Source of the DNA: a bacterium
GTDB taxonomy: Bacteria > Patescibacteriota > Minisyncoccia > Phycocordibacterales > UBA2100
Assembly: GCA_021781955.1 (NCBI GenBank)
Contig: JAJXVV010000001.1
Span: forward strand, 95,519 to 159,518
DNA length: 64,000 bases
Direction: 5' to 3'
Position numbers and translations under genes: made by a program. Below are positions 1 to 50,552 of the stretch, piece by piece (the first letter of the stretch is position 1; each line of letters starts with the position of its first letter). The notes below the pieces were generated by a model that saw only the letters and a list, made by a program, of their open reading frames with translations, made no database searches and had not been told where the DNA came from.

Positions 1-797
1 CGCAGGTCATCGGCAGCGCAGGCGGTCTCGCCGGGCTCGGGCAATCGAACGGCGGGCCCTCGTACCTCGCCGCCATCGCGCAGCAATCATCGTCCGGTCT
101 CAGCAACGTCGTCGCGAATGCCGTGCTGCAAAACCTCAATGGCTTGCTGCAGAGCGAGAACCAGTTCCTGAACTCGATCAGCAGCATCGCCTCCTCGCTC
201 CAGCAGAGCGAAGGGTCGCTGCGCAGCGCCGAGAGCCAATGCTGGACCCAGATAATCGCGCAGGCGTGCTCGAGCCAGCTCTCGGCCAATAACACCTGCA
301 CCGCCTCGAGCAGCGTCACGCTCAAGGTCGCCACTTCGACCGCGTTCTCCGATGCGGTCATCAACTCGCAGATAGCCCCGGCCGCAGCGGCCGCAACGAC
401 CTCGATGGCGCAATCGCAGGCGGGACTGCAGTACATAAACGACCTCGCTCAAGCCATGGCCTCCGGCAATATGAGCTCGCAGAACATTGCCTCGGCGCTG
501 GCCGATCAGCTTGTCGCCTCCTCTTCTGAAGCGCAATATGCCCAGACGGGCGTCCCGGTCGCGGGCGGGGGTATCGTACACTCCCAAAACCAGGTGAGGA
601 CGGCGCAATCCCAGCAGAGCGCGGTATCCGATCAGATGCAGACGCTCCTATCGAACACCGCCAACACGTGGGGCGGTCTCGGTACCGACGGCTCGAGCAA
701 CATCCCGTGGGACGGCACGACGAACCCCGGCAACGGCTGGTGCAACACGAGCAACCCCGCGACCATCACCGCATGGCAGCAGAAGTGGAAACAATAG
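1..797 (+). CDS. Secreted Ser/Ala/Gln-rich protein, 5'-partial; reading frame open from window start; first gene of the T4SS-like operon
   Basis: Frame 3 open from nt 3 to stop TAG 795-797; low-complexity S/A/Q/N-rich sequence with Cys pairs; stop 2 nt before next ATG (800), so translationally coupled. Confidence 0.5.
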   Translation, partial: QVIGSAGGLAGLGQSNGGPSYLAAIAQQSSSGLSNVVANAVLQNLNGLLQSENQFLNSISSIASSLQQSEGSLRSAESQCWTQIIAQACSSQLSANNTCTASSSVTLKVATSTAFSDAVINSQIAPAAAAATTSMAQSQAGLQYINDLAQAMASGNMSSQNIASALADQLVASSSEAQYAQTGVPVAGGGIVHSQNQVRTAQSQQSAVSDQMQTLLSNTANTWGGLGTDGSSNIPWDGTTNPGNGWCNTSNPATITAWQQKWKQ

Positions 798-799
798 TT

Positions 800-3328
800 A
801 TGAGTTATTTTTCATTAAAAAAGGGGCTGTTGATGCTCGTGTTTGTCTTGAGTGCGGCCGCAATGCTACCGACATTCGCTTCGGCGGACACGCTTACGAC
901 TACCGACCTGCAGAAATTCTGCATTCTCGGACAAGACGTAAATGGTTGTAATTATATTATGTTCAACGATCAGGGTCAGCAGTGTTTTATGCCGGGCGAT
1001 AACACTCCTGGCCCTTCCGCAACGAACGTTGCGGACGCAAACACTTTGTATGCTCAAGGCTGTACTCATACCTTGAAGGGAGAAGTAGCAAAACGACAGC
1101 TGTCTTCATGCTACGACGGCTCAATTCTCTTGAGCGGCTGGGAATGTATTTGGTACGACATTGTCGCCAGCGTAGCCGCGCTCTTTATCTCTATTGCAGC
1201 ATGGTTGCTTGCGCTCGCCGGCTTCCTCTTCAACTGGCTCATGGACAACACCGTGATCTTGTTCGCCACTTCGATATATGGCAAAGCGGGGCCGGCGGTA
1301 GAATCCGCCTGGGCCGCATTCCGCGACATCGCCAACATCCTCATCATTGGCATCTTCACTTTCATCGCGATATCCATCATTCTCGGCCTAGAAGAATTCG
1401 GACAGAAAAAGCTCATCGCCCGCGTGCTTATCGTCGCGGTACTCATCAACTTCAGCCTCCTGTTCTCCAAAATGGCAATCGATGCGTCCAATTACCTTTC
1501 ATTGCAAATCTATTCCGCGAGCACGGGGCGTAGCGCCAATGATGCGCTCAACGACGTGAACGGCAACAACACCGTCGGCCAGAGCGGCGTCAATCCGTTC
1601 AACGGGTATGCCGATTCCGGCATCGCGGGCGCGTTCGTCGGGATTATGGGCGTGACCGGTATCACCGATGCGACACGAGCGCTTGTTATTCTCGCGGAAG
1701 AGCGAAACGGCGTCGGTGTGATGTTCGTGCACGGCCTACTCACCGCAGTGCTCTTCCTCGGTGCGGCTCTCGTGCTTTTGTACGGTTCGTTCTTGCTCAT
1801 CTCGCGCGCGATCATCCTCATTTTCTTGCTCGCCACCTCCTCAGTAGCGTTCGCCTCATACCTTATTCCCAAATGGGGGCACAGCAAGTTGGGCTGGGAC
1901 ACATGGACCCGATCGTTCATTTGGGCCGCGACGCTCGGCCCCATCCTTCTCCTGTTGCTCTGGATGACGCTCGACGTCGCCTACGCCATGCGCAGCAAAG
2001 TAGGTACCTTGGGCGACCTCACCACGAATCCCACGAACGGTGCCGACATGAGCGCGCTCTTCGTGTACCTCATTACGCTTGGTCTTCTGTTCATATCGTT
2101 CCGTGTCGCGAGCATGGCGGCAAACAAGGTCAGCGGATTCGACTTCGCCGCGATGGCGACGGTATTGCCGCTCACGCTCGGCTCCCGCATGGCCGGCTTC
2201 GCACTGCGCCAAACCGCTGGCTGGGCCGGGTACGGGTACCAAAAGAGTCAGACCGCTCAGGCGCAATCTGACCGTGACAGAGCGATGCGTGCCAGGATGC
2301 AAGAACAAGCTGCCCTTAATCGAGGCGATGCGCGGTACGCCAAGAAATTTGGTGACCTCGCTGCTGGATACGAGAAACGCGCAGCGGGCCGCCTGAAGAA
2401 CGCCGCCCGTGGTGGCGCTATCGCGAGCAGCAAGTTCAACCTCATGAATACCGGGGCCGCACAACAAGCAATGAAGGCGGCGGGCGTCTCCGGGTTTGCG
2501 ACAGGGGCGAGCTCAAAGGGAGCGAAGAGCTATGCTGACCGCGTCAAAGCTGATGCTGACGCGATCGAAAAGCAAACTCGCGCTGCGGCCGCCGGGGTTA
2601 ATGAAGGTGATATTCGTAAACAAACAGAGAGCAAAGTGCGCGAAGAGCGTGAACGTGCCCGGAAAGAGGCGGACGCGCGACGGGATGATGCGAAGAATCA
2701 GGTCGACGCTATCCGCAATGCGGCGGAACAAGAAAAAGAAGGCCTGAAAGACGGCATCCAGAAATTGAGTGAAGACCTCAAGGCAGCGCAGTCCGCGCCG
2801 AACGCGGCTGAGGCAAGACGCGCGAACGAACTAAGAGACGCGGCAGATCGCAACGCAGGGGCCAATGAGATCATGCGAATAAAAGCTCGGCACGAAAGTG
2901 AGATGTACCAAGAGAAAGCGAAGATCGAGCAGGTAAAGAAGAACATCGAAGAAGAACAGCGACGCATCCAACCCGATCTGGCCGCCATAGACGCCAAGTA
3001 TGCCTCTAGTTTGAAGAAGGCGACGGATGCGCTCGACGATCTCGACAGCCAAGTCAAAAGATTCAGTAAAGATTCGGCCGAATCGAAAGAACTCATAAAG
3101 CAGGCCGGTGACGCATCGATCAACGCGGCTCGGCAGACCGTCCAGAATATCGCCTCAGGCGTAAGGCATGGTGTTTTGCGAAATCCGATGGAAAGGGAGC
3201 TCGTCGCGAAGGAAGTTCGAGGTCGGTATAAGTCGAGTGCCGAAAAATCGAGCGTTCTGAAGACAATCGAAGAGGCGACTAAGGCCACAGAAAAGCCTGC
3301 CGCTCCGGCAGCTGAACAGGGAAAATAG
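800..3328 (+). CDS. VirB6/TrbL-like polytopic membrane protein with long C-terminal charged coiled-coil extension
   Basis: N-terminal signal peptide MSYFSLKKGLLMLVFVLSAAAMLPTFASA; Cys-rich periplasmic segment; at least 6 predicted TM helices (residues ~110-520); C-terminal ~330 aa rich in A/E/K/R/Q heptad-like repeats; position directly upstream of PrgI-like and VirB4 genes. Confidence 0.55.
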   Translation: MSYFSLKKGLLMLVFVLSAAAMLPTFASADTLTTTDLQKFCILGQDVNGCNYIMFNDQGQQCFMPGDNTPGPSATNVADANTLYAQGCTHTLKGEVAKRQLSSCYDGSILLSGWECIWYDIVASVAALFISIAAWLLALAGFLFNWLMDNTVILFATSIYGKAGPAVESAWAAFRDIANILIIGIFTFIAISIILGLEEFGQKKLIARVLIVAVLINFSLLFSKMAIDASNYLSLQIYSASTGRSANDALNDVNGNNTVGQSGVNPFNGYADSGIAGAFVGIMGVTGITDATRALVILAEERNGVGVMFVHGLLTAVLFLGAALVLLYGSFLLISRAIILIFLLATSSVAFASYLIPKWGHSKLGWDTWTRSFIWAATLGPILLLLLWMTLDVAYAMRSKVGTLGDLTTNPTNGADMSALFVYLITLGLLFISFRVASMAANKVSGFDFAAMATVLPLTLGSRMAGFALRQTAGWAGYGYQKSQTAQAQSDRDRAMRARMQEQAALNRGDARYAKKFGDLAAGYEKRAAGRLKNAARGGAIASSKFNLMNTGAAQQAMKAAGVSGFATGASSKGAKSYADRVKADADAIEKQTRAAAAGVNEGDIRKQTESKVREERERARKEADARRDDAKNQVDAIRNAAEQEKEGLKDGIQKLSEDLKAAQSAPNAAEARRANELRDAADRNAGANEIMRIKARHESEMYQEKAKIEQVKKNIEEEQRRIQPDLAAIDAKYASSLKKATDALDDLDSQVKRFSKDSAESKELIKQAGDASINAARQTVQNIASGVRHGVLRNPMERELVAKEVRGRYKSSAEKSSVLKTIEEATKATEKPAAPAAEQGK

Positions 3329-3329
3329 T

Positions 3330-3878
3330 ATGGGACCGCAAGAACAGAGCGTTGACCAGCAATTAGCGGAGCAGTTCAAGGGGCTGCCGCCGGTGGTGCA
3401 GAACGCCATCACATCCGCCGACGTGCAGAAACACCTGCGCGACCTCGCGAATACCCACAAGCTCCACCTCGATCAATGGCAATTGCTCGAGAACGAGGTC
3501 ATGCTGACCTTGCTCGGCATCCAACCCATCGAGAACCTCGAACAAAACATCAAGAACGAGGTCGGCGTGCCTGCGGAAGACGCCAAGGCGCTTGCCGAGG
3601 ACATCTCCACAATAGTCTTCGAGCCGATCCGCGAAGAACTCGAGCGCGCGCTCAACAATCCCGACGCGAAGGCTGCGGCGGAAAGCGATGTCGAGGCCGC
3701 GCGGACGCAGGCGCTCGCCGCAGAACGCGCGGCGGCGGTCGCGCCGGCGACGCCGCCGCCTCCGCCGCCCGAGCAGAAAGCCGAACGCGCGCAGATCTCG
3801 CAGGCATACGCGTCGGGGGAGAGCTCGACCGCGCGCAAGAACATCCACGACGACCCCTATCGCGAGACGCCGCAGTGA
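3330..3878 (+). CDS. Hypothetical soluble protein with Pro/Ala-rich C-terminus (T4SS operon member)
   Basis: ORF starts 1 nt after upstream stop; no TM segments; PPPPPP tract; no recognisable family. Confidence 0.45.
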   Translation: MGPQEQSVDQQLAEQFKGLPPVVQNAITSADVQKHLRDLANTHKLHLDQWQLLENEVMLTLLGIQPIENLEQNIKNEVGVPAEDAKALAEDISTIVFEPIREELERALNNPDAKAAAESDVEAARTQALAAERAAAVAPATPPPPPPEQKAERAQISQAYASGESSTARKNIHDDPYRETPQ

Positions 3879-3901
3879 GTGGACGCTGATATAATAGGCG
3901 C

Positions 3902-4402
3902 ATGCAGTTCCAGGTGCCGCAGTTCATTGAGGTCGAGGACAAAATCTTCGGCCCGCTCACGTTCAAGCAGTTTATCTACATCGGCGGCGGCTTGGGCGCG
4001 AGCTATTTGCTCTGGCGCCTATTGCCCGTCTATCTCGCAAGCCCCTTGATTGCGATCATCGTCGGATTCGCGGCAGGGCTCGCGTTCTTCCAGTTCAACG
4101 GCCGTCCGCTCATTATCGCGGTCGAGCACGCTTTTTTCTTCTTCATGCACGGCAAGCTCTACCTCTGGGACAACACGCGCAAGGTGAAACGGCTTCCGGA
4201 AATGATCAAAGCTTCGCCGCTCGCCTCGAGCGTATACGTGCCGCACCTCTCGGAGAGCCGCCTCCACGAGCTCGCGTGGAGCCTCGACATCAAGGAACGT
4301 ATCGCGGCCGGGGTCGCCGGCGAGGACGAGAAGCGGCTAGCGCGCACGCAAGATCGCCTCGTCGAGCCGATGCGCACCGCGCGCGAAGCGCTCGGGCACT
4401 GA
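3902..4402 (+). CDS. PrgI/VirB3-like small two-TM membrane protein
   Basis: N-terminus MQFQVPQFIEVEDKIFGPLTFKQFIYIGGG followed by two hydrophobic helices; this motif and its position immediately 5' of VirB4 are typical of Gram-positive-type T4SS PrgI/VirB3-like proteins (from memory of the family, not searched). Confidence 0.5.
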   Translation: MQFQVPQFIEVEDKIFGPLTFKQFIYIGGGLGASYLLWRLLPVYLASPLIAIIVGFAAGLAFFQFNGRPLIIAVEHAFFFFMHGKLYLWDNTRKVKRLPEMIKASPLASSVYVPHLSESRLHELAWSLDIKERIAAGVAGEDEKRLARTQDRLVEPMRTAREALGH

Positions 4403-4412
4403 TCAAGAACGT

Positions 4413-5075
4413 ATGCCCCCTGCCCAAAACACCGCGCGCGCCTCGAGTCGTTCCACCCAAGACTTTTTGCCGGTCTCGGAAGTGCGCGACGGCATCGTGG
4501 TGCTCAAAGACGGCGGCCTGCGGGCGATACTGCTCGCCTCATCGCTCAACTTCGCCCTCAAAAGCGAGGATGAGCAGACCGCGTTCATCGTACAGTTCCA
4601 GAACTTCCTCAATTCGCTCGACTTCTCCTGCCAGATATTCGTGCAGTCTCGCATGCTCGACATACGCCCCTATGTTGCCACGCTCGAGGTCGCGTACAAG
4701 AACCAGCTCGATGACCTCATGCGCACCCAAATACGCGAATATATCGAGTTCGTGAAAAGCTTCACGGAAGCTGCCAATATCATGACCAAGAATTTCTTCG
4801 TGGTCGTTCCATACTCGCCGGCTCTCGCTTCCGCGCAAAAAGGGCCGCTCTCGCTCTTGCCGTTCGGCGGTAAACCGCAGAATCCCGAGGACGCGAACCG
4901 CACGTTCGAAGAACAGACTTCCCAGCTCGAGCAGCGCATCTCTATCGTGCAGCAAGGCCTGGTGCGCACCGGCGTGCGCACCGTGCAGCTCGGTACTGAA
5001 GAGGCGATCGAACTGCTCTACAAAATGTTCAATCCCGGCGAGGAGGGGAAACCGATGCCGCTCGATAGTCAGTAG
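4413..5075 (+). CDS. VirB4/TrbE N-terminal domain encoded as a separate ORF
   Basis: N-terminus FLPVSEVRDGIVVLKDGGLRAILLASSLNFALKSEDEQTAFIVQFQNFLNSL resembles the conserved start of Gram-positive VirB4/TraE-family ATPases; 220 aa + 634 aa downstream ORF equals normal VirB4 length; different reading frame from the downstream ORF. Confidence 0.5.
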   Translation: MPPAQNTARASSRSTQDFLPVSEVRDGIVVLKDGGLRAILLASSLNFALKSEDEQTAFIVQFQNFLNSLDFSCQIFVQSRMLDIRPYVATLEVAYKNQLDDLMRTQIREYIEFVKSFTEAANIMTKNFFVVVPYSPALASAQKGPLSLLPFGGKPQNPEDANRTFEEQTSQLEQRISIVQQGLVRTGVRTVQLGTEEAIELLYKMFNPGEEGKPMPLDSQ

Positions 5076-5157
5076 GCGGGGACATCTCGCACCTGCCGCG
5101 CGGAAAAACACGATACAATGTGAGGACGTACCGGACACTGCGTACGGCACTTTACGT

Positions 5158-7062
5158 ATGGCGCTCAGCGATTTCCTTCCGTTCGGCAAGAAAACAGACG
5201 CGAACCCGCCGATGCTGCCCGTGCTGCCCGAAGAGATATACAAGTCGGGCGTGCTCGATCTGCAAGACGTCATCGCGCCGCACGCGCTGAAAGTCAACCC
5301 GCGCGAGCTCGACTTGGGCGAGCGTATCGCCCGCACCTTTTTCGTCATTTCCTACCCGCGATTCCTCACCACCGGATGGTTCGCGCCCATCATCAACATG
5401 GACAAGATCATCGACATATCTATTTTCGTCCACCCGATGGATACCAACGAGATGCTCCGCAAGTTCCAGAAGAAGGTCGCCGAGGTGCAGAGCCAGATCT
5501 CGCAGCGCGAGCAGAAGGGGATGGTGCGCGATCCGATGCTCGACACCGCCTACCAAGATCTCGAACAGCTGCGCGACAACCTCCAGCAAGCGCAGGAACG
5601 CATGTTCGACGTGGGACTCTACCTCACGATCTACGGCAACACGCGGGAGGAAATCGACAAAGTAGAGACCGAGGTGCGTTCCATTCTCGAATCCCGCCTC
5701 GTTTACATCCGCCCCGCGCTCTTCCAGCAAGAGCAGGGCTTCCGCTCGGTCTTGCCGCTCGGGAACGATGAGCTCGATGTGCACACGAAACTCAATTCCG
5801 CGCCGCTCTCCTCCATTTTCCCGTTCATATCCTTCGACCTCACCTCTGATCGCGGCATCCTCTACGGCATCAACCGCCACAATTCCTCGCTCATCCTCTT
5901 CGATCGATTCTCGCTTGAGAACTACAACTCTGTGACCTTCGCTAAGTCAGGCGCCGGCAAAAGCTACACGACGAAACTCGAGATCCTTCGCTCACTCATG
6001 TTCGACACCGAGGTCATCGTCATAGACCCCGAACGCGAATACGAATACTTGGCGGAGATGGTCGGCGGCCGCTACTTCAACATCTCGCTTTCTTCGGAGC
6101 ACCATATCAACCCCTTCGACCTTCCCATTCCGCGCGAGGACGAGAGCCCCTCGGACGTGCTTCGCAACAACATCATCACGCTTGTCGGACTCTTCCGCAT
6201 CATGCTCGGAGGCCTCACACCCGAAGAAGACGCCATCATCGACAAGGCCATCACGGAAACATACGCGCTCAAGGACATCACCGCCGACGTCAACTTCGCT
6301 GCGGTCGAGCCCCCGCTCCTTTCCGACTTCGAGCTCGTGCTCTCTGGCATGGAGGGGAGCGAATCGCTCGTGCAGCGACTCTCGAAGTACACCAAGGGCA
6401 CGTGGTCGGGCTTCATGAACCGGCCGACGAATGTGGACATGAACAAGAAGCTCGTCGTTTTCTCGGTGCGCGATATGGAAGACGACCTCAAGCCGGTCGC
6501 CATGTACATCATCACGCACCACATCTGGAACGCGGTGCGCAAAGAGCTGCGCAAGCGACTCCTCGTCATCGACGAGGCGTGGTGGATGATGCGTTCCGAG
6601 GACACAGCATCGTTCCTCTTCGGAATCGCGAAACGCGGCCGCAAGTACTACCTCGGGATATCGACGATAACGCAGGACGTGTCCGACTTCCTCAATTCAC
6701 CGTACGGCGTGCCGATGATCACCAACTCATCGATCCAGATGCTCTTGCGCCAGTCGCCGACCTCGGTCGACCTCGTGCAATCCACCTTCAAGCTCTCCGA
6801 CGAAGAGAAGTACCTGCTCCTTGAGAGCGATGTGGGGGAGGGGATCTTCTTCGCGGGACTAAAGCATGTCGCCATCAAGGTCATCGCTTCGTACACCGAG
6901 GATCAGATCATCACGTCCGATCCGTCCCAGATCCTCGCCATCAAAAAAGCGAAGCAGGAACTGGCGAATGCCGAGCCGGAAAGCGTTCCAACGGCTGCTG
7001 CGCACTCCGCTCCGGGGGAGGACACCCAGCCGATCGGCGCTTCACCTTTTGCCTCTGTATGA
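5158..7062 (+). CDS. virB4: VirB4/TrbE/CagE-family T4SS ATPase (C-terminal ATPase part)
   Basis: Walker A FAKSGAGKSYTTK, Walker B LLVIDEAWWMM, downstream GISTITQDVSDF motif typical of VirB4/TraC/TrsE ATPases. Confidence 0.8.
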   Translation: MALSDFLPFGKKTDANPPMLPVLPEEIYKSGVLDLQDVIAPHALKVNPRELDLGERIARTFFVISYPRFLTTGWFAPIINMDKIIDISIFVHPMDTNEMLRKFQKKVAEVQSQISQREQKGMVRDPMLDTAYQDLEQLRDNLQQAQERMFDVGLYLTIYGNTREEIDKVETEVRSILESRLVYIRPALFQQEQGFRSVLPLGNDELDVHTKLNSAPLSSIFPFISFDLTSDRGILYGINRHNSSLILFDRFSLENYNSVTFAKSGAGKSYTTKLEILRSLMFDTEVIVIDPEREYEYLAEMVGGRYFNISLSSEHHINPFDLPIPREDESPSDVLRNNIITLVGLFRIMLGGLTPEEDAIIDKAITETYALKDITADVNFAAVEPPLLSDFELVLSGMEGSESLVQRLSKYTKGTWSGFMNRPTNVDMNKKLVVFSVRDMEDDLKPVAMYIITHHIWNAVRKELRKRLLVIDEAWWMMRSEDTASFLFGIAKRGRKYYLGISTITQDVSDFLNSPYGVPMITNSSIQMLLRQSPTSVDLVQSTFKLSDEEKYLLLESDVGEGIFFAGLKHVAIKVIASYTEDQIITSDPSQILAIKKAKQELANAEPESVPTAAAHSAPGEDTQPIGASPFASV

Positions 7063-8120
7063 GATACCCGTTCACGTTCGCCTTGCTCACGCTTTTCCTT
7101 TCTGCCGCGCCGACGCTCGCGAGCGCGCAACTCCTCACGGCGAGCGGGTTCGGCACGAATCTCTCCATCGCGCTTTCACCGCAGAGCCCGCGCCCAGGAC
7201 AGCAGGTGCTCCTCACCGCGCAAGGCGTCGGCATCGACCTCCAGGGCAGTTCCATCGTCTGGCACGCGGGCGGAAACATCATCGCGCAGGGAGTCGGCGC
7301 GAACACCGCAACCCTGACGGCGGGCGCGCTTGGAAGCGTGGTTCCGATCGAGGTCGACGTCGCGACGCAAGGCGGCGGCACCTACTCCGCGCAGGCGACC
7401 ATCGCACCGACAACGCTCGACCTCCTGGTGAGCTCGGACTCATACGTGCCGCCCTTCTTCCGTGGCCGCGCATTTCCGAGCGCGGGCACCGATCTCCTCG
7501 TTCAGGCCGTCCCTACGTTCGTGCGCGCTGATGGCAGCACCATCCCGGTATCATCGATCACGTTCACCTGGAAAAAGGACGGCCAAGTGCTCGGCGCGCT
7601 CTCGGGAGCCGGGCGATCGCTGGCGGTCATACCGATCGAACACGTGTACGGCAACAATACCGTGACCGTGACCGCGGTCTCATCGGACGGTTCGCTTTCG
7701 GGCGAAGCGACGGTGTCGCTCCCGACCACAAACCCGGTACTCGACCTCTACGAGGATCATCCGCTGTACGGCATCCTGTTCAATAACGCGCTCTCGCCCC
7801 TCTCGACCATCGGCGAGAACGAAGTGACGTTCGCTGCCATACCGTACTTCATGCAGGCACAGAGCACTGCGGACCGGCAGCTCGCCTACCGCTGGAGCGT
7901 CAACGGCAACACCGTTGACGTGAGCCCTTCGGATCCGAACGAGATAACCGTGAACGCGAACAATTCCAGCGGACAAGCGGCCATCGCGCTCGACCTCACG
8001 CATTCTGGAAACTTCTACCTCGAACCGAGCGGCACCTGGAACATCACCCTCTCAGCGAACGGCTCCGGCAGCGGCTCCGGGGGCGGCAGCACGACCAGCC
8101 CATTCGCCAGTCCGCACTGA
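7059..8120 (+). CDS. Secreted beta-rich protein with repeated domains (T4SS operon member)
   Basis: ATGA overlap with the virB4 stop; signal peptide MRYPFTFALLTLFLSAAPTLASA; repeated ~90 aa T/S/V-rich beta-type segments; GSGSGSGGGS tail. Confidence 0.5.
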   Translation: MRYPFTFALLTLFLSAAPTLASAQLLTASGFGTNLSIALSPQSPRPGQQVLLTAQGVGIDLQGSSIVWHAGGNIIAQGVGANTATLTAGALGSVVPIEVDVATQGGGTYSAQATIAPTTLDLLVSSDSYVPPFFRGRAFPSAGTDLLVQAVPTFVRADGSTIPVSSITFTWKKDGQVLGALSGAGRSLAVIPIEHVYGNNTVTVTAVSSDGSLSGEATVSLPTTNPVLDLYEDHPLYGILFNNALSPLSTIGENEVTFAAIPYFMQAQSTADRQLAYRWSVNGNTVDVSPSDPNEITVNANNSSGQAAIALDLTHSGNFYLEPSGTWNITLSANGSGSGSGGGSTTSPFASPH

Positions 8121-8125
8121 ACACG

Positions 8126-9340
8126 ATGCGTATGAACGTGCAAAAATTCGTCCAGTACCTCCTGATCGCGATCCTTGTGATCGTCCTCGGCGCGCTCGCC
8201 GGTTGGTACCTGTTCTTGCACGCGCAGAGCATCAAGAACCAAGCGCTGAGCACCGATCTCGGGCTTGGCGCACCAGCCCCCTTTGGAACGACGCAGGGCA
8301 CGAGCGGCGGATTCAGCACCATGAGCGCGAGCACAAGCACGGGAACGGGCGGGAGCGCACAGCCGCCGCAATTATGGCACGTGACGACCGCGCCGATCGC
8401 TGGTTTTGCGTTCGCCTCATCAACCGACGGCATGGTCGTGCGCTATGTCGAGCGGGCCACCGGCTACGTGTTCGAGGCGAACCTCACGACCGGCACCATC
8501 GTCCGCCTCACCAATACGCTCTCTCCAAAAATATATGAGGCGCAGTTCGCCCCTCCCGACCGGGTCGCGGAACGCTCCATCGACAATGGGGGGAACATAA
8601 CGACGTTCGCGGGGCTCTACGGCGTCGGGACATCGTCGGCGCTCACCGGCACCTCGTTCGCCGCCAACATCGAAGCGCTCGCGGCCGACCCATCATCGAA
8701 CAACGTCTTCTCGCTCATCGACAAGGGAAGCGGGGTCGTCGGCGTCATTTCCGGGTGGGACGGATCGAAGCCGAAGCAAGTGTTCAGCTCCGGCGTACCT
8801 GGCTGGCGCGCATGGTGGCTCCCCGACGGACGTATCGTACTCGAGCAAAACGCGGCCGATTCCGTGCTCGGCTACAGCTACGTGCTCAGGAACGGGGCGC
8901 AAACACCGCTCATCGATCCGCTTCCCGGACTCACCGCGATCCCTCAATCCGGCTCGGCCGCGCTTCTCTACAGCACCTCGCAGAACGGCGCGCTCTCGCT
9001 CTATGTTCGGCCTGCGGGGAGCAGCACGCCGCTCCAACTCCCGCTCGCGACGCTCGCCGATAAGTGCGCGTGGGCGCCGAACAGCCCGACCGTCTACTGC
9101 GGCGCACCGCAGACGACGCCTGGAGCGGACTTCCTCGACGCATGGTACCGTGGCGAGGCGCACAGCGCCGATGCCATGTGGAGTATCGACACATCCTCCG
9201 GAAAAGCCGCCCAAATATTCGCACCGAGCTCAAGCGCGGCGCTCGACGTCGACGAACCGTCGGTCGACGGCAGCGGTTCGTACTTCGGCTTCATCAACGC
9301 ATCCGACCTTTCGCTCTGGGTCCTGCGGCTCGGCCGATAA
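8126..9340 (+). CDS. N-terminally membrane-anchored periplasmic/extracellular protein, possibly beta-propeller-like (T4SS operon member)
   Basis: Single N-terminal TM segment (QYLLIAILVIVLGALAGWYLFL); G/T/S-rich linker; ~330 aa with TolB/WD-like repetitive character; 5 nt after upstream stop. Confidence 0.5.
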   Translation: MRMNVQKFVQYLLIAILVIVLGALAGWYLFLHAQSIKNQALSTDLGLGAPAPFGTTQGTSGGFSTMSASTSTGTGGSAQPPQLWHVTTAPIAGFAFASSTDGMVVRYVERATGYVFEANLTTGTIVRLTNTLSPKIYEAQFAPPDRVAERSIDNGGNITTFAGLYGVGTSSALTGTSFAANIEALAADPSSNNVFSLIDKGSGVVGVISGWDGSKPKQVFSSGVPGWRAWWLPDGRIVLEQNAADSVLGYSYVLRNGAQTPLIDPLPGLTAIPQSGSAALLYSTSQNGALSLYVRPAGSSTPLQLPLATLADKCAWAPNSPTVYCGAPQTTPGADFLDAWYRGEAHSADAMWSIDTSSGKAAQIFAPSSSAALDVDEPSVDGSGSYFGFINASDLSLWVLRLGR

Positions 9341-9346
9341 CATCGT

Positions 9347-9784
9347 ATGCGGAACTTCTCTCGCGTGAACACCGTACTCGGTCTCGTACTGCTAAGCGCG
9401 ACGCTCGCGCCAATGCTCGCGCTCGCGCAGCAGAACTGCACGACAGCAAGCGGTTTCGTGCAGCTCGCATGCACGCCCTCTGGCGCACTAAGCAACCTCT
9501 ATAGTTCGCAAGGGGACCTGAGCTCGTTCATCAACTCGCTCTTCAAATTCGCCATCGCGATCGGCGCCATAGGCGCCGTACTGCGGCTCGTGTACGCCGG
9601 ATATCTCTACATGGGTTCGGACCTCTGGAACAAGAAAAGCCAAGCAAAACAGATCATGAGCGACGTCACGATTGGCCTTCTGCTCCTCTTGGGCATCTGG
9701 CTCATTCTCTACCAGATCAACCCTGACATCGTCAGCCTGAGCGCGCTCAAGACCATCACGCCTCCGCAAACACAGTCGCAGTAA
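9347..9784 (+). CDS. TrbC/VirB2-like T4SS pilin
   Basis: Long signal peptide, mature N-terminus with 2 Cys, then two hydrophobic helices separated by a short charged loop (GSDLWNKKSQAKQ); the classic VirB2/TrbC architecture; ~145 aa. Confidence 0.5.
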   Translation: MRNFSRVNTVLGLVLLSATLAPMLALAQQNCTTASGFVQLACTPSGALSNLYSSQGDLSSFINSLFKFAIAIGAIGAVLRLVYAGYLYMGSDLWNKKSQAKQIMSDVTIGLLLLLGIWLILYQINPDIVSLSALKTITPPQTQSQ

Positions 9785-9810: not shown

Positions 9811-10290
9811 TTAGTCCGCAGCGTACTTGATGACGACCCGCCGGTTGCGGCCTTCGCCCTGCGATTCGGTCTTGATGTGAGGCGCGTCGTGAAGCGTCGT
9901 ATGGACGATGAGGCGCTCGTACGCGGTCATGGGGGAGAGCTCGACGTCGTACTGGAACGAGCGCGCCCGCTCCGCCATCATGAATGCTTTGGTCTGTAGT
10001 TCTTTGATCTGCTTCGTCCGATAGTCGTTGACGTCAACGAGGAACAGCGCCCCGCCATGCTTCTCGTCCGCATCCGCTCCTTCGGGAGGCGGGTTGCGTC
10101 GCTCATATATCTTTTTCACGAGCAAGTCTATCGCATGAATGGTGTCGCCGTGGCCTCCGATGAGGGTCCGCGCGTCATCGGTCCGTATCGAGTATATCTC
10201 CTGACCAGCTAACACCTCCTTCTCGACGGAGGAGTACGCCATGCCGCTGGAATCGAGCAGTTCTTTGATGATAGCCTCAGGAGAATTCAT
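9811..10290 (-). CDS. khpB: Jag/KhpB R3H-domain RNA-binding protein
   Basis: R3H signature HGDTIHAIDLL and KH-like N-terminus; located downstream of yidC as in the conserved rpmH-rnpA-yidC-jag operon. Confidence 0.8.
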   Translation of the reverse strand: MNSPEAIIKELLDSSGMAYSSVEKEVLAGQEIYSIRTDDARTLIGGHGDTIHAIDLLVKKIYERRNPPPEGADADEKHGGALFLVDVNDYRTKQIKELQTKAFMMAERARSFQYDVELSPMTAYERLIVHTTLHDAPHIKTESQGEGRNRRVVIKYAAD

Positions 10291-10341: not shown

Positions 10342-11079
10342 TTACTGTTTCGGCCGAAAACGCCTCCCTGCGAGGAGTTCTTGCCCGATCATGAAAACAT
10401 TGCTCGTGACCCAATAGAGCGGCGCGGCCGCGGCAACGGTATAGCCGATGACTCCGATCATCGCGGGCAGGACGTAGCGAGCCTGAAGATCGAAGCTCCT
10501 CGCCATGTCCCCCGAGAGCGAGGCCTCCACCGGGGTCGATTCCGGAACTTTCTCGCGCGGCCCCATGGAGAGCCTCGTGTAGGTGAACTGCGTCGCCGCC
10601 GCAAGGAGCGCAAGGAGCGCGCTGCGCGCGCTCATGTCGATGAGCCCCAAGAAATGCATGTTTATAGACGCTGGCACGTGAACGAACGAATAGAGCAGAT
10701 TTGCGTGCACGTCGGGAAACCCACTCCGGTAAAAGACCCAGTAGAGCGCGATCAGAATGGGGAACTGTATGAGCACGAGGCCGAAGCTCGCGAACGGGTG
10801 TATGCCGCGCTCTTTATAGAGCGCAAAAACCGCCTGGCTTTGCTCCGGCGAGTTCTTCTTGTATTTTTTCTTCACTTCCTCGACCTCCGGCGCGATCTTC
10901 TTCATCGCCAATTGCGCTTCGACTGCCCGACGTGAAAGCGGGTAGAGAATGACGCGCACAACGACAGTGAGCGCTACCACCGCGAGCCCCATATCATGAT
11001 AGGGGAGGATGCCGACCAAAAAAACGAGCCCGTTGTAGAGCGGGTTGTAGATAAGCGTCGAAAACAAGGCCGAAAGCAT
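10342..11079 (-). CDS. yidC: YidC/SpoIIIJ membrane protein insertase (short Gram-positive-like form)
   Basis: Multi-TM 245 aa protein with motifs LVLIQFPILIALYWVF and YPLSRRAVEAQ; conserved operon context. Confidence 0.85.
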   Translation of the reverse strand: MLSALFSTLIYNPLYNGLVFLVGILPYHDMGLAVVALTVVVRVILYPLSRRAVEAQLAMKKIAPEVEEVKKKYKKNSPEQSQAVFALYKERGIHPFASFGLVLIQFPILIALYWVFYRSGFPDVHANLLYSFVHVPASINMHFLGLIDMSARSALLALLAAATQFTYTRLSMGPREKVPESTPVEASLSGDMARSFDLQARYVLPAMIGVIGYTVAAAAPLYWVTSNVFMIGQELLAGRRFRPKQ

Positions 11080-11085: not shown

Positions 11086-11439
11086 TTATTGTAGCGCGCT
11101 GTCACCCTTGGCGCCAACGACGCCGGACCGCTCGGCAAGCGACCGCAGATCTTCCTTGAGCGCCGCGAACGACGCATCAGCGGCGCTTCGCTTCGCATGG
11201 AAGATGAGTGCGATCGGCGCGCGGCTATTCTGCAGGAGCGGAGCGAGCACTGCGCGGGCTCGCCTCTTCACGAGATTACGCGAAACCGCTTTTGCGGAGG
11301 CCTTTTTTGATACAACGCATGCCCACTTAATGCCGTCCCCACATCGGGCGACCGAGAGAGAGAAGTGCGCACCATACACCCGTCTCAGCGGTTGCAGTGA
11401 CTTGAAATCATCGCTTGAGAGGCGTTGGGAATGTGCCAT
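11086..11439 (-). CDS. rnpA: Ribonuclease P protein component
   Basis: 117 aa basic protein, motif VSRNLVKRRARAVL; immediately downstream of rpmH. Confidence 0.8.
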   Translation of the reverse strand: MAHSQRLSSDDFKSLQPLRRVYGAHFSLSVARCGDGIKWACVVSKKASAKAVSRNLVKRRARAVLAPLLQNSRAPIALIFHAKRSAADASFAALKEDLRSLAERSGVVGAKGDSALQ

Positions 11440-11441: not shown

Positions 11442-11576
11442 CTACACCGAGAGTTTCGCGCGGCCCTTGCGGCGGCGGCGCTGGAGCACGCGGCGCCCGG
11501 TGGGGGAAGCGCTACGCTTCAAAAAACCGTGCGTGCGGGCTCGCTTGCGTTTCTTTGGCTGCCACGTGCGTTTCAT
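11442..11576 (-). CDS. rpmH: 50S ribosomal protein L34
   Basis: Hand-translated minus-strand ORF absent from the track (44 aa): [44 protein letters not shown], canonical L34. Confidence 0.85.
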
Positions 11577-11705
11577 GCGCACAACTATACCTATTTTCCG
11601 CTCAGGCACAAGAGCGACTAATGCTCGCCGCCAATCCCCACACTATCCACACCTTATACACTCACGCGGCATGCACTTCGAACACTTCCCTTGTATGGCG
11701 GCGCG

Positions 11706-11742: not shown

Positions 11743-13104
11743 ATGACGATGACGACGATGAGCAATAGAGAGTTGTGGCAGAACGCCCTCGTACAGATCG
11801 AGCTCGGCACTTCACAGGCTTCGTTCCGAACCTGGTTCAAGAACACCGACATCACGAGCCACAACGGCGGAACAGTGCAGATAGCCGTACCGTCGAAGAT
11901 CGTGAAGGAGTGGCTTATGGACAAACACCACAAGCTTATTTTGCGCGCGCTGCGCTCCCTCGACGACACTATCCGTACCGTCGAATACTCGGTCCACCGC
12001 ACCGCCATACCCACTGAGCGCAAACCGGTCCGCGAACCCATTCCCGAGAACGCGTCCCTCGACCTCGGTTCGCTCTATATAGATAAACGGGATAATCTGA
12101 ACCCGCGCTACACATTCGACACTTTCGTCGTCGGCCCTTTTAATGAGCTCGCGCATGCGGCGGCACAGGCGGTCCTTGAACGTCCCGGCCTTATGTACAA
12201 TCCGCTTTTCATTTATGGAGCGACGGGACGAGGCAAAACACACCTCATTCAGGCGATCGGCAACTACTTCAAGAAGACCCGCACCAACAAGAAGGTGCTC
12301 TACGTGACCTCCGAGCGGTTTTCCGTAGACTACATCAATGCGGTGCGCGCCGGACACGCAAACAACTTCAAGGATCAGTACCGCCAGTACGACGTGCTCA
12401 TCATGGATGATGTCCAATTCATCGCGAACACGGAAAAGACCCAGGAAGAACTCTTTCACCTCTTCAATGTGATGCGCGATAACAACAAACAGATCGTGTT
12501 CTCCTCCGATAAACACCCCGCGCTTCTTCCGGGGCTCGAGGAACGCCTTAAGGGACGCTTCGCCTCTGGTATGATCGCCGAAATACCGGAACCGGACCTT
12601 GAATCGCGCCTCTCGATCATTCGGGCGAAACTTGAAAGCCACGGCTTCTCGCTCCCGGAGGACATAATCACGTACATTGCCGAAAACTTACGCGGCAACA
12701 TCAGGGAGATCGAGGGCGTGCTTAATATGATCGTCTGTAAATCACAACTCAAAGGCCGCGGGGTCTCGCACGCCGACGTCCGCACCCTTATCAAACACAA
12801 CATCAAGCCGAACAGGGGGGTTTCGATTGATGAGGTAGTGCGTCGTATCGCGCAATACTACGAGATCGCAGAAAAGAGCATCTACGAAAAAACGAGAAAA
12901 AAGGAGGTGGTGAAGCCGCGCCAAATCATCATGTATATCCTGCGAGAGGAATTTAATGTGTCGTACCCGACGATCGGCGAGAAACTCGGAGGCAGAGACC
13001 ACACAACCGTCATCCACTCATGTGAAAAAATAAAAGAGGAAGTGAAATCAAACCCGTCGCTCGAACAAGAGCTTGATTATATCCGCACCATTATCCATGC
13101 ATAA
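11743..13104 (+). CDS. dnaA: Chromosomal replication initiator DnaA
   Basis: AAA+ motifs GATGRGKTHLIQAIGNYF, box VII, C-terminal DNA-binding helix; 453 aa. Confidence 0.95.
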   Translation: MTMTTMSNRELWQNALVQIELGTSQASFRTWFKNTDITSHNGGTVQIAVPSKIVKEWLMDKHHKLILRALRSLDDTIRTVEYSVHRTAIPTERKPVREPIPENASLDLGSLYIDKRDNLNPRYTFDTFVVGPFNELAHAAAQAVLERPGLMYNPLFIYGATGRGKTHLIQAIGNYFKKTRTNKKVLYVTSERFSVDYINAVRAGHANNFKDQYRQYDVLIMDDVQFIANTEKTQEELFHLFNVMRDNNKQIVFSSDKHPALLPGLEERLKGRFASGMIAEIPEPDLESRLSIIRAKLESHGFSLPEDIITYIAENLRGNIREIEGVLNMIVCKSQLKGRGVSHADVRTLIKHNIKPNRGVSIDEVVRRIAQYYEIAEKSIYEKTRKKEVVKPRQIIMYILREEFNVSYPTIGEKLGGRDHTTVIHSCEKIKEEVKSNPSLEQELDYIRTIIHA

Positions 13105-13325
13105 GATGTGGATACTCACTTAGTAGAATGTGAGTATGTGTATCAATAAAACAACCGAACCAGCAAAAAAATCACTGTCCACACACTCGCCAATACTTCA
13201 TCAAGAACATTTCCACACACACCACCCGCAAAAAAAACATCATTCTTCAACCTAAAATCAACTTCTCCACACTATCAACACCCCTAATAGTAATAATAGG
13301 ATTTTTAATAAAAAAGATATCCACT
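13105..13325. promoter_or_regulatory. Candidate oriC: AT-rich dnaA-dnaN spacer with a DnaA-box cluster and DNA unwinding element
   Basis: Local AT-rich island in a ~62% GC window; five motifs matching TTATCCACA at 7-8 of 9 positions in one orientation (TGTGGATAC 13107-13115 on the opposite strand, CTGTCCACA, ATTTCCACA, TTCTCCACA, ATATCCACT); AT tract aatagtaataataggatttttaataaaaaag at 13285-13315. Confidence 0.55.
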
Positions 13326-14423
13326 ATGAAGATGAAGATCCGGGTTGAAAAACTCCTTGGTGCGGTACTCCTCGCGGAGCGAGTGGTGGGCAAGAAGGAA
13401 TCACTTCCAATACTTTCCTGTATTCTCATCGAGGCACGTAAAAATAATGTTCGCGTGAAAGCGACGAATCTTGAGTCCGGTTTAGAGATCGTTATACCGG
13501 GAGATGTTGGTGTGGATGGTGTGGTGGCGGTACCGGCCGCTATCTTATCGCAAACACTCAGGTCTATTTCTGGGGAGATGGTCGAGTGCTCGGTTGAAGA
13601 GGGGAATCTCGCGATAAACACAAAAAAAACAAAAACCCTCATAAAGGCGGTACCTCACGACGAGTTCCCATTACTCCTAAAAACAACAGAAGAAGGTGGT
13701 GTTAGTATTCCCAAACAAGAGCTAATCAAAATCATACAGTCGGTTTCCTACGCGGCATCCCCATCCATGGTTCGGCCAGAGCTCGGCAGCATCTTCATTT
13801 CCATGAATGCGAGCTCGATGCTCTCGGTCGCGACCGATTCGTTCCGGTTGGCTGAAAAGGCCATTCCCATGCATGGGAAGGGTTCGGTCGAACTTTTGAT
13901 ACCACTTAAACATGCCCAGGAGCTTGCGCGTATACTCGAATATGTCGTTGCGGAGACGGTATCCATGTTCGCAGGGGATTCACAGGTGGTGGTGCGCGCC
14001 GATGGTGTGTCATACGTCTCCCGTGTTATTGAGGGTAATTTCCCAAACTACAAAGAGATCCTACCGAAGAGTTTCATGACGGAAGCCACACTCCTTAAGG
14101 GTGAATTCGCGGACATGCTGCGTAAGGCGCGGGTGTTCGCTGGGTCCGATCAACACGTCGGGCTTCATGTGTACCCAAAACGGAAGGTTTTTAGCGCGAC
14201 CGCACACAATACTGAGGTTGGTGAGATGTCGGACGTGATCGATGCCGCGCTCACGGGTGAGGATATCGATATTAATTTCCACATAGGCTATCTTGGCGAC
14301 TGTCTCGCTTCGATCGAGGCTGACTCCATCACCCTCGGCTTCTCCGGCGCGGGGAAACCTCTCGTGATGCGAGGCGCGTCGGACGCATCGTTCACCTACC
14401 TGGTGATGCCGCTCAATCGGTAA
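13326..14423 (+). CDS. dnaN: DNA polymerase III beta sliding clamp
   Basis: 365 aa; three-domain clamp-like sequence; canonical position after dnaA. Confidence 0.9.
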   Translation: MKMKIRVEKLLGAVLLAERVVGKKESLPILSCILIEARKNNVRVKATNLESGLEIVIPGDVGVDGVVAVPAAILSQTLRSISGEMVECSVEEGNLAINTKKTKTLIKAVPHDEFPLLLKTTEEGGVSIPKQELIKIIQSVSYAASPSMVRPELGSIFISMNASSMLSVATDSFRLAEKAIPMHGKGSVELLIPLKHAQELARILEYVVAETVSMFAGDSQVVVRADGVSYVSRVIEGNFPNYKEILPKSFMTEATLLKGEFADMLRKARVFAGSDQHVGLHVYPKRKVFSATAHNTEVGEMSDVIDAALTGEDIDINFHIGYLGDCLASIEADSITLGFSGAGKPLVMRGASDASFTYLVMPLNR

Positions 14424-20303: not shown

Positions 20304-22007
20304 TCACGTGATCGTCTCGAGCGTCACGTTGTCCGTGAGGTCGACCACGCGGCCGAGCTCCTCGAGCGCGGTGACGCCTTGCAAGACCTTCACCGCGCCG
20401 TCCTGCGCCATGCGGCGGATATTCTGGTGCTTTGCCGCCGCCCATATCTCACGCTCGGAGGAGGTGTGGCGCACGCACTCCTCTATCGCGTGGTCCATGA
20501 GTATCACCTCGACGACCGCGATGCGGCCCTTGTAGCCCAAGCCGCCGCATTTCTCGCAGCCTTTGGGCAGCCACATGATGTCGCGATTGGCCGGCAGCTC
20601 GTCGGCGTGCGGAATGGCGCGGAGAAGCGGCTCCATAAGCTTGCGCGAGGCGTCATCGATCGGCGTCGGCATGCGGCAGTGCGGGCACAAGCGGCGCACG
20701 AGGCGCTGCGCCATCGCCACGGTCACTGAAGCGCCCAAAATATCGGCGTTGACTCCCATATCTATCAGGCGAGGGAAGGTGCCGGCGGCGTCATTGGTGT
20801 GGAGCGTGGAGAACACGAGGTGGCCGGTGAGCGAGGCGTGCACGGCCGTCGAGGCGACTTCGGCATCGCGGATCTCGCCGACCATGATGACGTCCGGGTC
20901 TTGGCGCAAGGTGCTGCGCAAACCGGAGGCGAACGTGTAGTCCTTCGAGACTTGCGTCTGGACGATGCCGGCGAGGTGGTACTCGATCGGGTCCTCGATA
21001 GTGATGACCTTGATCTGCGGCGAGGCGACGTGCGAGAGGAAGGCGTAGAGCGTCGTTGTTTTTCCGGAGCCGGTCGGACCGGTGTTGAGTATCATGCCGT
21101 TCGGCTTCGCGATTTCATGATCGAAAATCTCCATGAGGTATTTGTCGAATCCGAGCGCGTCCATGGGGAGCGATATTGTCGTCGGATCGAGCACGCGCAT
21201 GACGATGGTCTCCGCATAGGAGCCGGGAAGCACGGAGGTACGTATTTCGATCTCTTTTTGATTGACCACGATAGAGAAGCGGCCGTCCTGCGCGGCGTTC
21301 TTGATGTTGAGCTTGAGGCCCGAGAGCAGCTTGATGCGGGAGGAGACGAGCGCGTACGTGGGCGGATCGAACATGGTGGCTTCGACCAAAACGCCGTCGA
21401 GGCGGTAGCGCATACGGACGCCCGCGTCCTCAGGTTCCAGGTGGATGTCTGAGGCACTGAGCGCGAGTGCGCCGCTCATCATGATTTCGAGCACGCGCGA
21501 GATGCGATGTGTGTCTTTCGAGCCCGCATGCGACCCGATCTCGGCTTTCACATCGGCGAGCGTTCGCAGCTTGCCGAGCATCTCTTGGATGGTCTCGTTG
21601 GAGAGCGTGAGGACGCCTGCCTCGGTCTCGGTCGCGTATGAAATGTCGCGATAGCGGTCCCATGCATGCTCAAGCGAGGCCTTCGAGACGATGAAGCGGT
21701 GCGGACGATAGCCCAAGCGCTCGAGGTCGGCCAGGGCCTGGAGCGCATCGGGCCGCTCCGGCGCGCGCATCGCGAGGAACACGTCCTTATTGACCTTATG
21801 GAAGGCGGCGACTTCGGCCGGACGGGCCCGCTTCTCGTCGACGAGGCGAAGCGCGTCGGTGTCGATCGATCTTGAGGTGAGGTCGACGTACTCGACGCCA
21901 TACTTGTGCGAGAGCATCTCCGCGAGCTGCTCTTCTTCGCGCGCGCGGAGCTCGCTCAACCGCTCCTGCGATTTCTTGTCATTGAACTGCATCGCCATTC
22001 CCTCCAT
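20304..22007 (-). CDS. pilB: Type IV pilus assembly / type II secretion ATPase PilB/GspE
   Basis: Walker A NTGPTGSGKTTTLYAF, Asp/His boxes, C-terminal tetracysteine CPHC...CEKC zinc motif; 567 aa. Confidence 0.9.
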   Translation of the reverse strand: MEGMAMQFNDKKSQERLSELRAREEEQLAEMLSHKYGVEYVDLTSRSIDTDALRLVDEKRARPAEVAAFHKVNKDVFLAMRAPERPDALQALADLERLGYRPHRFIVSKASLEHAWDRYRDISYATETEAGVLTLSNETIQEMLGKLRTLADVKAEIGSHAGSKDTHRISRVLEIMMSGALALSASDIHLEPEDAGVRMRYRLDGVLVEATMFDPPTYALVSSRIKLLSGLKLNIKNAAQDGRFSIVVNQKEIEIRTSVLPGSYAETIVMRVLDPTTISLPMDALGFDKYLMEIFDHEIAKPNGMILNTGPTGSGKTTTLYAFLSHVASPQIKVITIEDPIEYHLAGIVQTQVSKDYTFASGLRSTLRQDPDVIMVGEIRDAEVASTAVHASLTGHLVFSTLHTNDAAGTFPRLIDMGVNADILGASVTVAMAQRLVRRLCPHCRMPTPIDDASRKLMEPLLRAIPHADELPANRDIMWLPKGCEKCGGLGYKGRIAVVEVILMDHAIEECVRHTSSEREIWAAAKHQNIRRMAQDGAVKVLQGVTALEELGRVVDLTDNVTLETIT

Positions 22008-25759: not shown

Positions 25760-25772
25760 TACTATTTTCTGC

Positions 25773-36157: not shown

Positions 36158-36656
36158 TCACCGTGAGCGTGAACTGTCCATTCCCCGCGCCAGCGAGCTG
36201 ATCGATGGGGACGGAGGCCGCGGTGAACCGTGAATTCGCTCTGAGCGCCATTTGGTACGCGTTCAACGTTTGTGTGTCGGAAGCCGTGCCCGAAAGTACG
36301 AGCGAAGCGGGCGAGCCGGCAGTGTACGTCAAGTGCGTGATCACGATACCCGCCGGCTTGTTCGCGAGCGCTGCGGTCATAGCATCCACCGGCGATGAGC
36401 TTGCCGCGAGCGGCGAGAGCGTGGTGACGAGCACTTTCAGATGCGCCATCGCGATGCCGTCTTGCGCGGCGCTCGGCGTCGAGGTGGCCGGAACGAGCGA
36501 CCCTTCGTCGACCCGAAGTGCCAGGTAGCTTGGTACGAGCGCGACGAGCGCGACGAGCGCGACGAGACTCGCGACGATCGAGCCGACCAGTACGAAACGT
36601 GCGCGGTACTCGTGCCATACCGCTTTTTGCGAACTGTTCGGGAGGACGTTGCTCAT
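36144..36656 (-). CDS. pilN: PilN-like type IV pilus assembly protein
   Basis: Short cytoplasmic N-terminus, single TM (VLVGSIVASLVALVALVALV), periplasmic domain; ATGA overlap with the pilM stop. Confidence 0.5.
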   Translation of the reverse strand: MSNVLPNSSQKAVWHEYRARFVLVGSIVASLVALVALVALVPSYLALRVDEGSLVPATSTPSAAQDGIAMAHLKVLVTTLSPLAASSSPVDAMTAALANKPAGIVITHLTYTAGSPASLVLSGTASDTQTLNAYQMALRANSRFTAASVPIDQLAGAGNGQFTLTVSGTY

Positions 36657-50549: not shown

Positions 50550-50552
50550 CAT

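Follow-up and report, generated by a model that had tools for sequence, protein, structure and literature searches.

The 64,000-nt stretch of DNA analyzed here (the window) carries, at positions 1–9784, a gene cluster that is almost certainly the chromosomal, origin-adjacent type IV secretion system (T4SS) of Patescibacteria, a system already described in 2023–2025. Its machinery is derived from that used for conjugation by monoderm bacteria (the MPF-FATA class). The best overall explanation, and in our judgment a likely one, is a Patescibacteria T4SS that may serve as a host-interface machine and not for conjugation. An earlier note on this DNA had compared the cluster with the T4SS-like machines of reduced-genome epibionts. 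That comparison was correct, this being the published Patescibacteria T4SS (PMC12102498, PMC10633639); the novelty that the note implied was set too high, the system being already published.

To place the cluster among its relatives, we scanned for VirB4 in one genome per species, which returned more than 570 relatives, and compared the best 80 loci by VirB4 similarity. Gene order and identities were obtained by tblastn of the cluster and flank proteins against these related loci. The best 80 are all Patescibacteria, at 76–94% VirB4 identity, and include Kaiser-, Nomura-, Taylor-, Campbell-, Adler-, and Wolfebacteria and Paceibacterota. The organism that carries the window is a Kaiserbacteria-like member of Paceibacteria.

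Layout of the Cluster

In the open reading frame (ORF) listing, nine genes, all on the + strand, fill window positions 1–9784; further flank was taken from an identical contig, L002. The genes, designated g1–g9, are as follows.

1–797, + strand: g1, fragment; last 264 codons of a 571-aa secreted protein
800–3328, + strand: g2, VirB6/TrbL-like polytopic membrane protein, 842 aa (Pfam matches of orthologues, hydropathy)
3330–3878, + strand: g3, soluble protein with no family match, 182 aa (orthologue alignment)
3902–4402, + strand: g4, PrgI/VirB3-family membrane protein, 166 aa (Pfam PF12666)
4413–5075, + strand: g5, TrsD-like protein, 220 aa, a separately encoded VirB4 N-terminal domain (NCBIfam)
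5158–7062, + strand: g6, VirB4-family ATPase, 634 aa (NCBIfam CD1110 family, Pfam, PDB)
7059–8120, + strand: g7, secreted tandem immunoglobulin-like (Ig) protein, 353 aa (AlphaFold2 model, Foldseek, alignment)
8126–9340, + strand: g8, bitopic membrane-anchored beta-propeller protein, 404 aa (AlphaFold2 model, Foldseek, profile)
9347–9784, + strand: g9, VirB2-like T4SS pilin, 145 aa (Pfam PF18895)

Most junctions are tight: 2 nt between g1 and g2, 1 nt between g2 and g3, a 4-nt ATGA overlap of g6 and g7, 5 nt between g7 and g8, and 6 nt between g8 and g9. The remaining three are wider (g3/g4, 23 nt; g4/g5, 10 nt; g5/g6, 82 nt). The description of nine packed, co-directional genes in the earlier note was exact in strand and in the five junctions it quoted, and the three it left unmentioned are these wider ones. 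The 82-nt g5/g6 gap contains no structured RNA (z-score −0.06 against shuffled controls; no Rfam match). Promoter and terminator consensus scans gave counts not above those in shuffled sequence; because they do not exceed chance, such signals do not inform operon status, which rests instead on gene packing and conserved order.

Contig L002, located through its PrgI product, is 100% identical to window positions 1–6656 and extends 6.1 kb further upstream. There the full g1 gene occupies L002 5181–6896 and encodes a 571-aa protein with a signal peptide and conserved cysteines. Upstream of it lie co-directional genes for a 264-aa and a 313-aa protein, both bitopic, the former overlapping the 571-aa gene by 4 nt and the latter starting with an N-terminal hydrophobic segment. 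The count of nine genes was thus too low: The cluster has eleven, of which the 571-aa gene is the third. Further upstream follow a divergently transcribed gene for a 168-aa secreted protein, then KsgA, then a UvrD/PcrA helicase.

A VirB4 Motor Encoded by Two Genes

The g6 protein matches the NCBIfam CD1110 family at E 6.1e-110 over profile positions 181–733, with a score above the family cutoff (368.6 versus 325 bits), matches Pfam P-loop_TraG at 3.8e-24, and contains both Walker A (AKSGAGKS) and Walker B (LLVIDEAWWMM) motifs, which bears out its earlier reading as a VirB4-family ATPase. In a PDB search, the nearest solved relative is the Gram-positive Thermoanaerobacter VirB4 (4ag5, C-terminal domain; 1.7e-41), with R388 TrwK distant (4.7e-7). 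The best plasmid-borne VirB4s, from Actinobacteria and Firmicutes, reach identities of only ≤36%. Membership in the Patescibacteria VirB4 clade is supported by the CD1110 score and by these identities (76–94% versus ≤36% for plasmid copies).

The g6 product lacks ~180 N-terminal residues of a full-length VirB4. Its counterpart g5 matches NCBIfam VirB4_plasma, which covers the VirB4 N-terminal region (2.1e-9), as well as TrsD/TraD (6.6e-6) and positions 8–119 of CD1110, and is recorded with the Pfam TraC-like family PF26593. Because g5 covers CD1110 positions 8–119 and g6 begins only at 181, the two together make up one VirB4 split over two genes. The TrsD-like protein and VirB4 are never fused: They are separate ORFs in 79/79 loci, which rules out a frameshift or pseudogene as the cause of the split.

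Membrane Partners and Pilin

The g4 product belongs to the PrgI family (PF12666; E 1.9e-9; score 38.4 bits, cutoff 27), and PrgI orthologues were found in 77 of the 80 loci. The PrgI/VirB3-like assignment made earlier therefore stands, but not the placement of this gene directly 5′ of VirB4, since the 220-aa TrsD-like g5 intervenes.

The terminal gene, g9, passes the cutoff of Pfam T4SS_pilin PF18895 (2e-6; 28.2 versus 26.6 bits), and its product has a signal peptide and two hydrophobic helices, three hydrophobic segments being predicted in all. Both the family and the topology proposed for a TrbC/VirB2-like pilin are confirmed. Pilin orthologues were detected in 58 loci. Its position was scored in 56 of these: In 31 it falls between the orthologues of g7 and g8, and in 25 it follows the propeller gene, the position differing by clade (loci L028–L082 versus L003–L027). 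In more distant loci, the ORF with the pilin match is often 200–400 aa long, perhaps owing to a gene fusion, an additional domain, or a wrongly assigned start.

For g2, the VirB6/TrbL-like assignment is reached only indirectly, via orthologues: 10 of 56 syntenic orthologues match Pfam TrbL (PF04610), the best at E 6.5e-7. The earlier assignment thus holds for the orthologues and not as a direct match of the window protein, and an exact look-up of the 842-aa product returned no record. About 6–7 hydrophobic helices are predicted in residues 1–440, followed by a basic, Ala/Lys/Glu/Arg-rich tail of ~370 aa whose PDB matches are only of the coiled-coil type. From its sequence, this tail looks like a coiled coil, and the protein fits the “extended VirB6” type mentioned in PMC12857230.

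Conservation and Chromosomal Setting

Almost everywhere the contig is long enough, the gene order is uvrD-ksgA-cluster-jag-yidC-(rnpA)-rpmH-dnaA-dnaN-PBP, where PBP denotes a penicillin-binding protein, and the end of VirB4 lies a median of 5.3 kb from dnaA. Median identities fall from VirB4 (78.9%, a value somewhat inflated by the ranking of loci on VirB4 similarity) through the TrsD-like protein (61.3%), DnaA (55.9%), PrgI (50%), YidC (44.2%), and DnaN (39.7%) to the envelope proteins (28–39%). VirB4 identity exceeds that of DnaA in 58/58 loci with both genes, and the same holds against DnaN, YidC, KsgA, UvrD, and PBP wherever a locus carries the pair. At the level of protein identity, this pattern shows a motor under strong purifying selection. 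The recurrence of the cluster between ksgA and jag-dnaA in related loci answers the question of core versus accessory status that the earlier note had posed: By synteny, the cluster is a core, vertically inherited machine and not a mobile element.

In seven loci (L018, L024, L029, L040, L041, L044, and L077), cluster-protein tblastn matches cross an in-frame stop codon. These may be artifacts, either of high-scoring segment pairs running on beyond the genes or of misassembly, or they may be genuine disruptions.

Downstream, the cluster is followed by the genes of the replication-origin region.

9811–10290, − strand: jag/R3H (Pfam)
10342–11079, − strand: yidC (Pfam)
11086–11439, − strand: rnpA (Pfam)
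11442–11609, − strand: rpmH (Pfam)
11743–13104, + strand: dnaA (Pfam)
13105–13325, no strand: probable origin of replication (oriC) in the dnaA–dnaN spacer (AT-rich, DnaA-box-like sites, GC skew)

Pfam matches identify dnaN and a class A PBP downstream as well. GC content at 13050–13349 drops to 37%, the cumulative GC-skew minimum falls at ~13.2–13.5 kb, and three one-mismatch DnaA boxes occur (11643, 13107, and 13263). The GC dip, DnaA-box-like sites, and skew minimum together place the end of the cluster ~3.3 kb from the probable origin. The cluster, on the + strand to the left of this origin, is transcribed toward it, head-on to the leftward replication fork. The jag-yidC-rnpA-rpmH genes are co-directional with the leftward fork. 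All related loci (L003–L082) keep the cluster in this orientation.

Tests for Mobility

Scans of the cluster genes, the 20 largest ORFs of the 16–64 kb region, the origin-flank genes, and the 6 kb upstream revealed no relaxase domain. No type IV coupling protein (T4CP; VirD4/TcpA) was detected in the ~70 kb examined (window scans plus upstream sequence), no integrase in the scanned window ORFs or the 6 kb upstream, and no tRNA in the 6 kb upstream, the nearest lying at 29617. The cluster has a GC content of 59.8% against 61.0% in the rest of the window, with alike GC content at third codon positions. Native composition, housekeeping flanks, and conserved synteny exclude a recently acquired or mobile element.

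The earlier note fares well on these points. The lack of a nearby VirD4, relaxase, or integrase is borne out over ~70 kb, as is that of a flanking tRNA close to the cluster, and the upstream check it had proposed yields KsgA and UvrD in place of a relaxase, T4CP, or integrase. Its view that this is no classical conjugative element is strongly supported by housekeeping flanks on both sides, native composition, and synteny across 80 species. The missing coupling protein holds at the locus, not as a genome-wide statement, and too much weight was given to the missing VirB11, which monoderm T4SSs lack anyway.

Accessory and Envelope Proteins

Lineage-specific envelope proteins go with the secretion components, and two of these accessory proteins gave confident structure models. 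The AlphaFold2 model of g7, built with 39 database homologues, has a predicted local distance difference test score (pLDDT) of 87.3 and a predicted template-modeling score (pTM) of 0.74; in it, a signal peptide precedes three Ig-like beta-sandwich domains in tandem, and the Gly/Ser-rich tail is disordered. The orthologue alignment shows the same threefold repeat, with invariant W68, W171, and W279. Top Foldseek matches in the PDB are phage Hoc (also matched by profile at 5e-4), NCAM Ig1-3, the GhpA grappling hook, and S-layer SbsB, with no T4SS component among them. A VirB9-like identity for g7 is unsupported, these fold matches being generic tandem-Ig proteins.

The model of g8 (83 homologues; pLDDT 90.8, pTM 0.81) has a helix at residues 5–44 that includes the membrane anchor, a low-confidence or disordered linker at 50–76, and beta-propeller strands at 83–401. 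The Cys314/Cys325 pair is invariant, and the propeller is predicted to be extracytoplasmic. Foldseek matches TolB, WD40, and lectin propellers at ~1e-7, and the sequence profile matches TolB at 1.4e-4. We rejected g8 as a TolB orthologue because only the propeller part matches: Despite similarity at both profile and fold level, g8 is anchored by an N-terminal helix and lacks the N-terminal alpha/beta domain of TolB. The organism is monoderm and offers no Tol-Pal context, and WD40 and lectin propellers fit g8 equally well.

Of the three secreted or anchored beta-rich proteins proposed earlier, g7 and g8 are upheld and the beta-rich third is not. The g3 product (182 aa) has neither a Pfam match nor a credible PDB match in profile searches. 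Its 37 aligned orthologues are conserved in the N-terminal domain, vary in a Pro/Ala-rich linker, and end in D-P-Y-(R)-E, an invariant sequence that resembles a short docking motif. Orthologues of the 571-aa protein occur in 28 loci, 27 of which were aligned; a DUF4141 match of a single orthologue (1.3e-5) was judged too thin and left unused. Neither this protein nor the 313-aa, 264-aa, and 168-aa proteins has a Pfam or PDB sequence match. The divergent 168-aa gene (L002 2749–3255, − strand), situated between ksgA and the cluster, was detected in 25 loci at a median identity of 54%, above most cluster envelope proteins.

Relation to Known Systems

In the survey of Quinonero-Coronel et al. (2025; PMC12102498), the VirB4 proteins of Patescibacteria form one monophyletic clade, related to MPF-FATA. 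TrsD is widespread there; PrgI/VirB3, VirB6, and VirB2-like pilins lie near virB4; relaxases are almost always absent; and most T4CP (VirD4) homologues lie far from virB4. The clusters of Paceibacteria and Microgenomatia lie near dnaA, dnaN, rnpA, ksgA, and rpmH, and it is plausible that an ancestor acquired the system horizontally (PMC12102498). Southlakia epibionticum cannot grow epibiotically without its T4SS genes, the pilins included, and has no recognizable coupling protein or relaxase (Wang et al. 2023, PMC10633639). In a 2025 review (PMC12857230), the pilus is proposed as a conduit, and comEC deletion in Southlakia is described as abolishing competence with viability unaffected. For a cultivated relative, strain OT8, cryo-electron microscopy (cryo-EM) revealed tubular structures at the parasite–host interface, possibly T4SS pili, and host-RNA uptake was reported (bioRxiv 10.64898/2026.06.21.733656).

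The present cluster has the same VirB4, TrsD, PrgI/VirB3, and PF18895 pilin set as the Patescibacteria T4SS (PMC12102498; Southlakia SEML1_0006–0019), with a VirB6-like protein recognized through its orthologues, and is likewise chromosomal, without a relaxase, and beside dnaA, dnaN, rnpA, rpmH, and ksgA, as in Paceibacteria. It differs in having one pilin gene, whereas Southlakia has an array of six, and in having no lysozyme or peptidase downstream of virB4. The tandem-Ig and anchored beta-propeller proteins are conserved in Paceibacteria, and the text of PMC12102498 mentions neither a propeller nor TolB.

With the MPF-FATA systems (pCF10 Prg/Pcf, pIP501 Tra, pGO1 Trs, and CTn2 CD1110), the cluster has in common a CD1110-family VirB4 and PrgI; adjacent VirB6-like, VirB3-like, and VirB4 genes; the absence of VirB7, VirB9, VirB10, and VirB11; and, in pGO1, a separate TrsD-like N-terminal protein. 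Unlike them, it has no T4CP, no relaxase, and no recognizable VirB1 hydrolase or VirB8-like protein at the locus, includes a VirB2-like pilin that the Gram-positive systems lack, and is chromosomally fixed and vertically inherited. The ComB system of Helicobacter pylori is also chromosomal, without a relaxase or coupling protein, and put to nonconjugative use. ComB, however, belongs to a diderm: It is built on a VirB7/9/10 core, none of whose proteins occurs here, and forms no pilus; related Patescibacteria, moreover, take up DNA via ComEC and type IV pili.

Proposed Role and Alternative Explanations

By analogy with transposon sequencing in Saccharibacteria and cryo-EM of OT8, we lean toward a nonconjugative host-interface role for the cluster. 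Following established T4SS biology, VirB3 and VirB6 would provide the membrane docking site for VirB4 hexamers. The motor would then extract the Sec-inserted VirB2-like pilin from the bilayer and drive assembly of a wall-crossing tube or pilus, which the Ig and propeller proteins may scaffold in the envelope, unless they bind the host surface. Contact-dependent exchange with the host, either effector export or import of host macromolecules, would be needed for episymbiotic growth.

Several observations weigh against this account. No cluster protein gives a sequence-level match to VirB8-like (PrgL/TraM) or VirB1-like (PrgK/TraG) components, and for this reason the envelope-spanning architecture is conjecture. 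The window copy of g2 has no direct Pfam or NCBIfam match. A gene for a coupling protein could lie in another part of the genome, given that the ~70 kb examined speaks for the locus and that most patescibacterial VirD4 homologues are far from virB4 (PMC12102498). Essentiality has been shown only in a Saccharibacterium, which belongs to a different class with a differing gene set (PMC10633639). The choice of loci by VirB4 similarity also flatters the conservation of the motor.

A DNA-uptake (competence) machine that imports environmental or host DNA, like ComB or the Ced system of Sulfolobales, would explain a VirB2/3/4/6 set without a T4CP or relaxase and would suit Patescibacteria, which are unable to synthesize nucleotides. 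The ABY1-class cluster lies beside comF, recG, and radA (PMC12102498), and there is a weak partial match to NCBIfam CedB (3.2e-9). That match is far under the cutoff (36 versus 700 bits), however, and no competence genes lie beside the present locus. In Southlakia, transformation needs ComEC, which is dispensable for viability, whereas the T4SS is essential (PMC12857230, PMC10633639). We regard DNA uptake as improbable. Assembly of a surface appendage only, a VirB2-like pilus decorated with Ig and propeller proteins for host adhesion without transport, is to us highly doubtful, even though the pilin gene is conserved in the cluster, g7 is built of tandem Ig domains as adhesins and surface layers typically are, some lectins have the same propeller fold as g8, and the locus has no substrate-recruiting T4CP. 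The window already has type IV pilus genes (PilB-like, PilM), and such pili give adhesion in Saccharibacteria; the extreme conservation of VirB4 suggests a role beyond pilus biogenesis; and cryo-EM of the relative points to tubes piercing the envelope of the host.

An integrated conjugative element, or its decayed remnant, lying near oriC by chance is effectively refuted. The VirB4 family otherwise resides on monoderm conjugative elements, and the plausible horizontal origin (PMC12102498) would be compatible with such an element. Against it, the scanned window genes and 6 kb upstream contain no integrase, relaxase, T4CP, or flanking tRNA; the position from ksgA to jag/yidC/dnaA recurs across the loci of the 80 species; composition is native and all genes are intact; and VirB4 is 76–94% identical across families, compared with ≤36% to any plasmid copy.

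Within the host-interface reading, a bolder version holds that a lineage-specific module—the propeller, three-Ig, and 571-aa cysteine-containing proteins and the two bitopic helical proteins—stands in for VirB8, VirB1, and adhesin functions that are otherwise missing and forms, with the VirB2-like tube, an import conduit for host RNA or nucleotides. We consider this version rather unlikely. If true, it would present a T4SS “in reverse” as a feeding organelle and would explain why its motor, VirB4, surpasses DnaA in conservation.

Much of bacterial diversity belongs to Patescibacteria, whose members live on the surface of other microbes. A central question about them is how they acquire the compounds that they are unable to make; the T4SS is a leading candidate for the host-interface machine and is essential in the sole species tested. 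To this picture the present locus adds a Kaiserbacteria-type example, a two-gene VirB4 in 79/79 loci, a VirB4 more conserved than DnaA, and confident folds for two conserved accessory proteins unmentioned in the published survey. These additions are minor, and the published picture is unchanged. As the organism is uncultured, they do not make the cargo question directly testable.

Other Features of the Window

Among the 20 largest ORFs between 16 and 64 kb, the housekeeping genes are those for RuvB, PolA, NusG, ArgRS, a class I tRNA synthetase, glutamate dehydrogenase, a Mur ligase, and a Pif1-like helicase; the others are type IV pilus genes and a few unknowns. Two of the pilus genes are as follows.

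20304–22007, − strand: PilB-like ATPase, 567 aa, with an MshEN domain (Pfam-type domain scan)
36653–37786, − strand: PilM, a type IV pilus gene

The PilB-like ATPase was considered as a displaced VirB11 and rejected, its 567-aa length and MshEN domain marking a type IV pilus motor. Type IV pilus genes and a T4SS are thus both present in the organism, within ~30 kb of the origin. Four large ORFs (25677–27125, 42893–45022, 47703–49187, and 49887–51119, −), of 482, 709, 494, and 410 aa, respectively, have no Pfam match at E ≤ 1e-5. The Pif1/RecD-like helicase (55669–57267, 532 aa) is without a relaxase domain. The 660-aa protein encoded at 61765–63747 contains a DUF11 repeat and is probably a surface protein.

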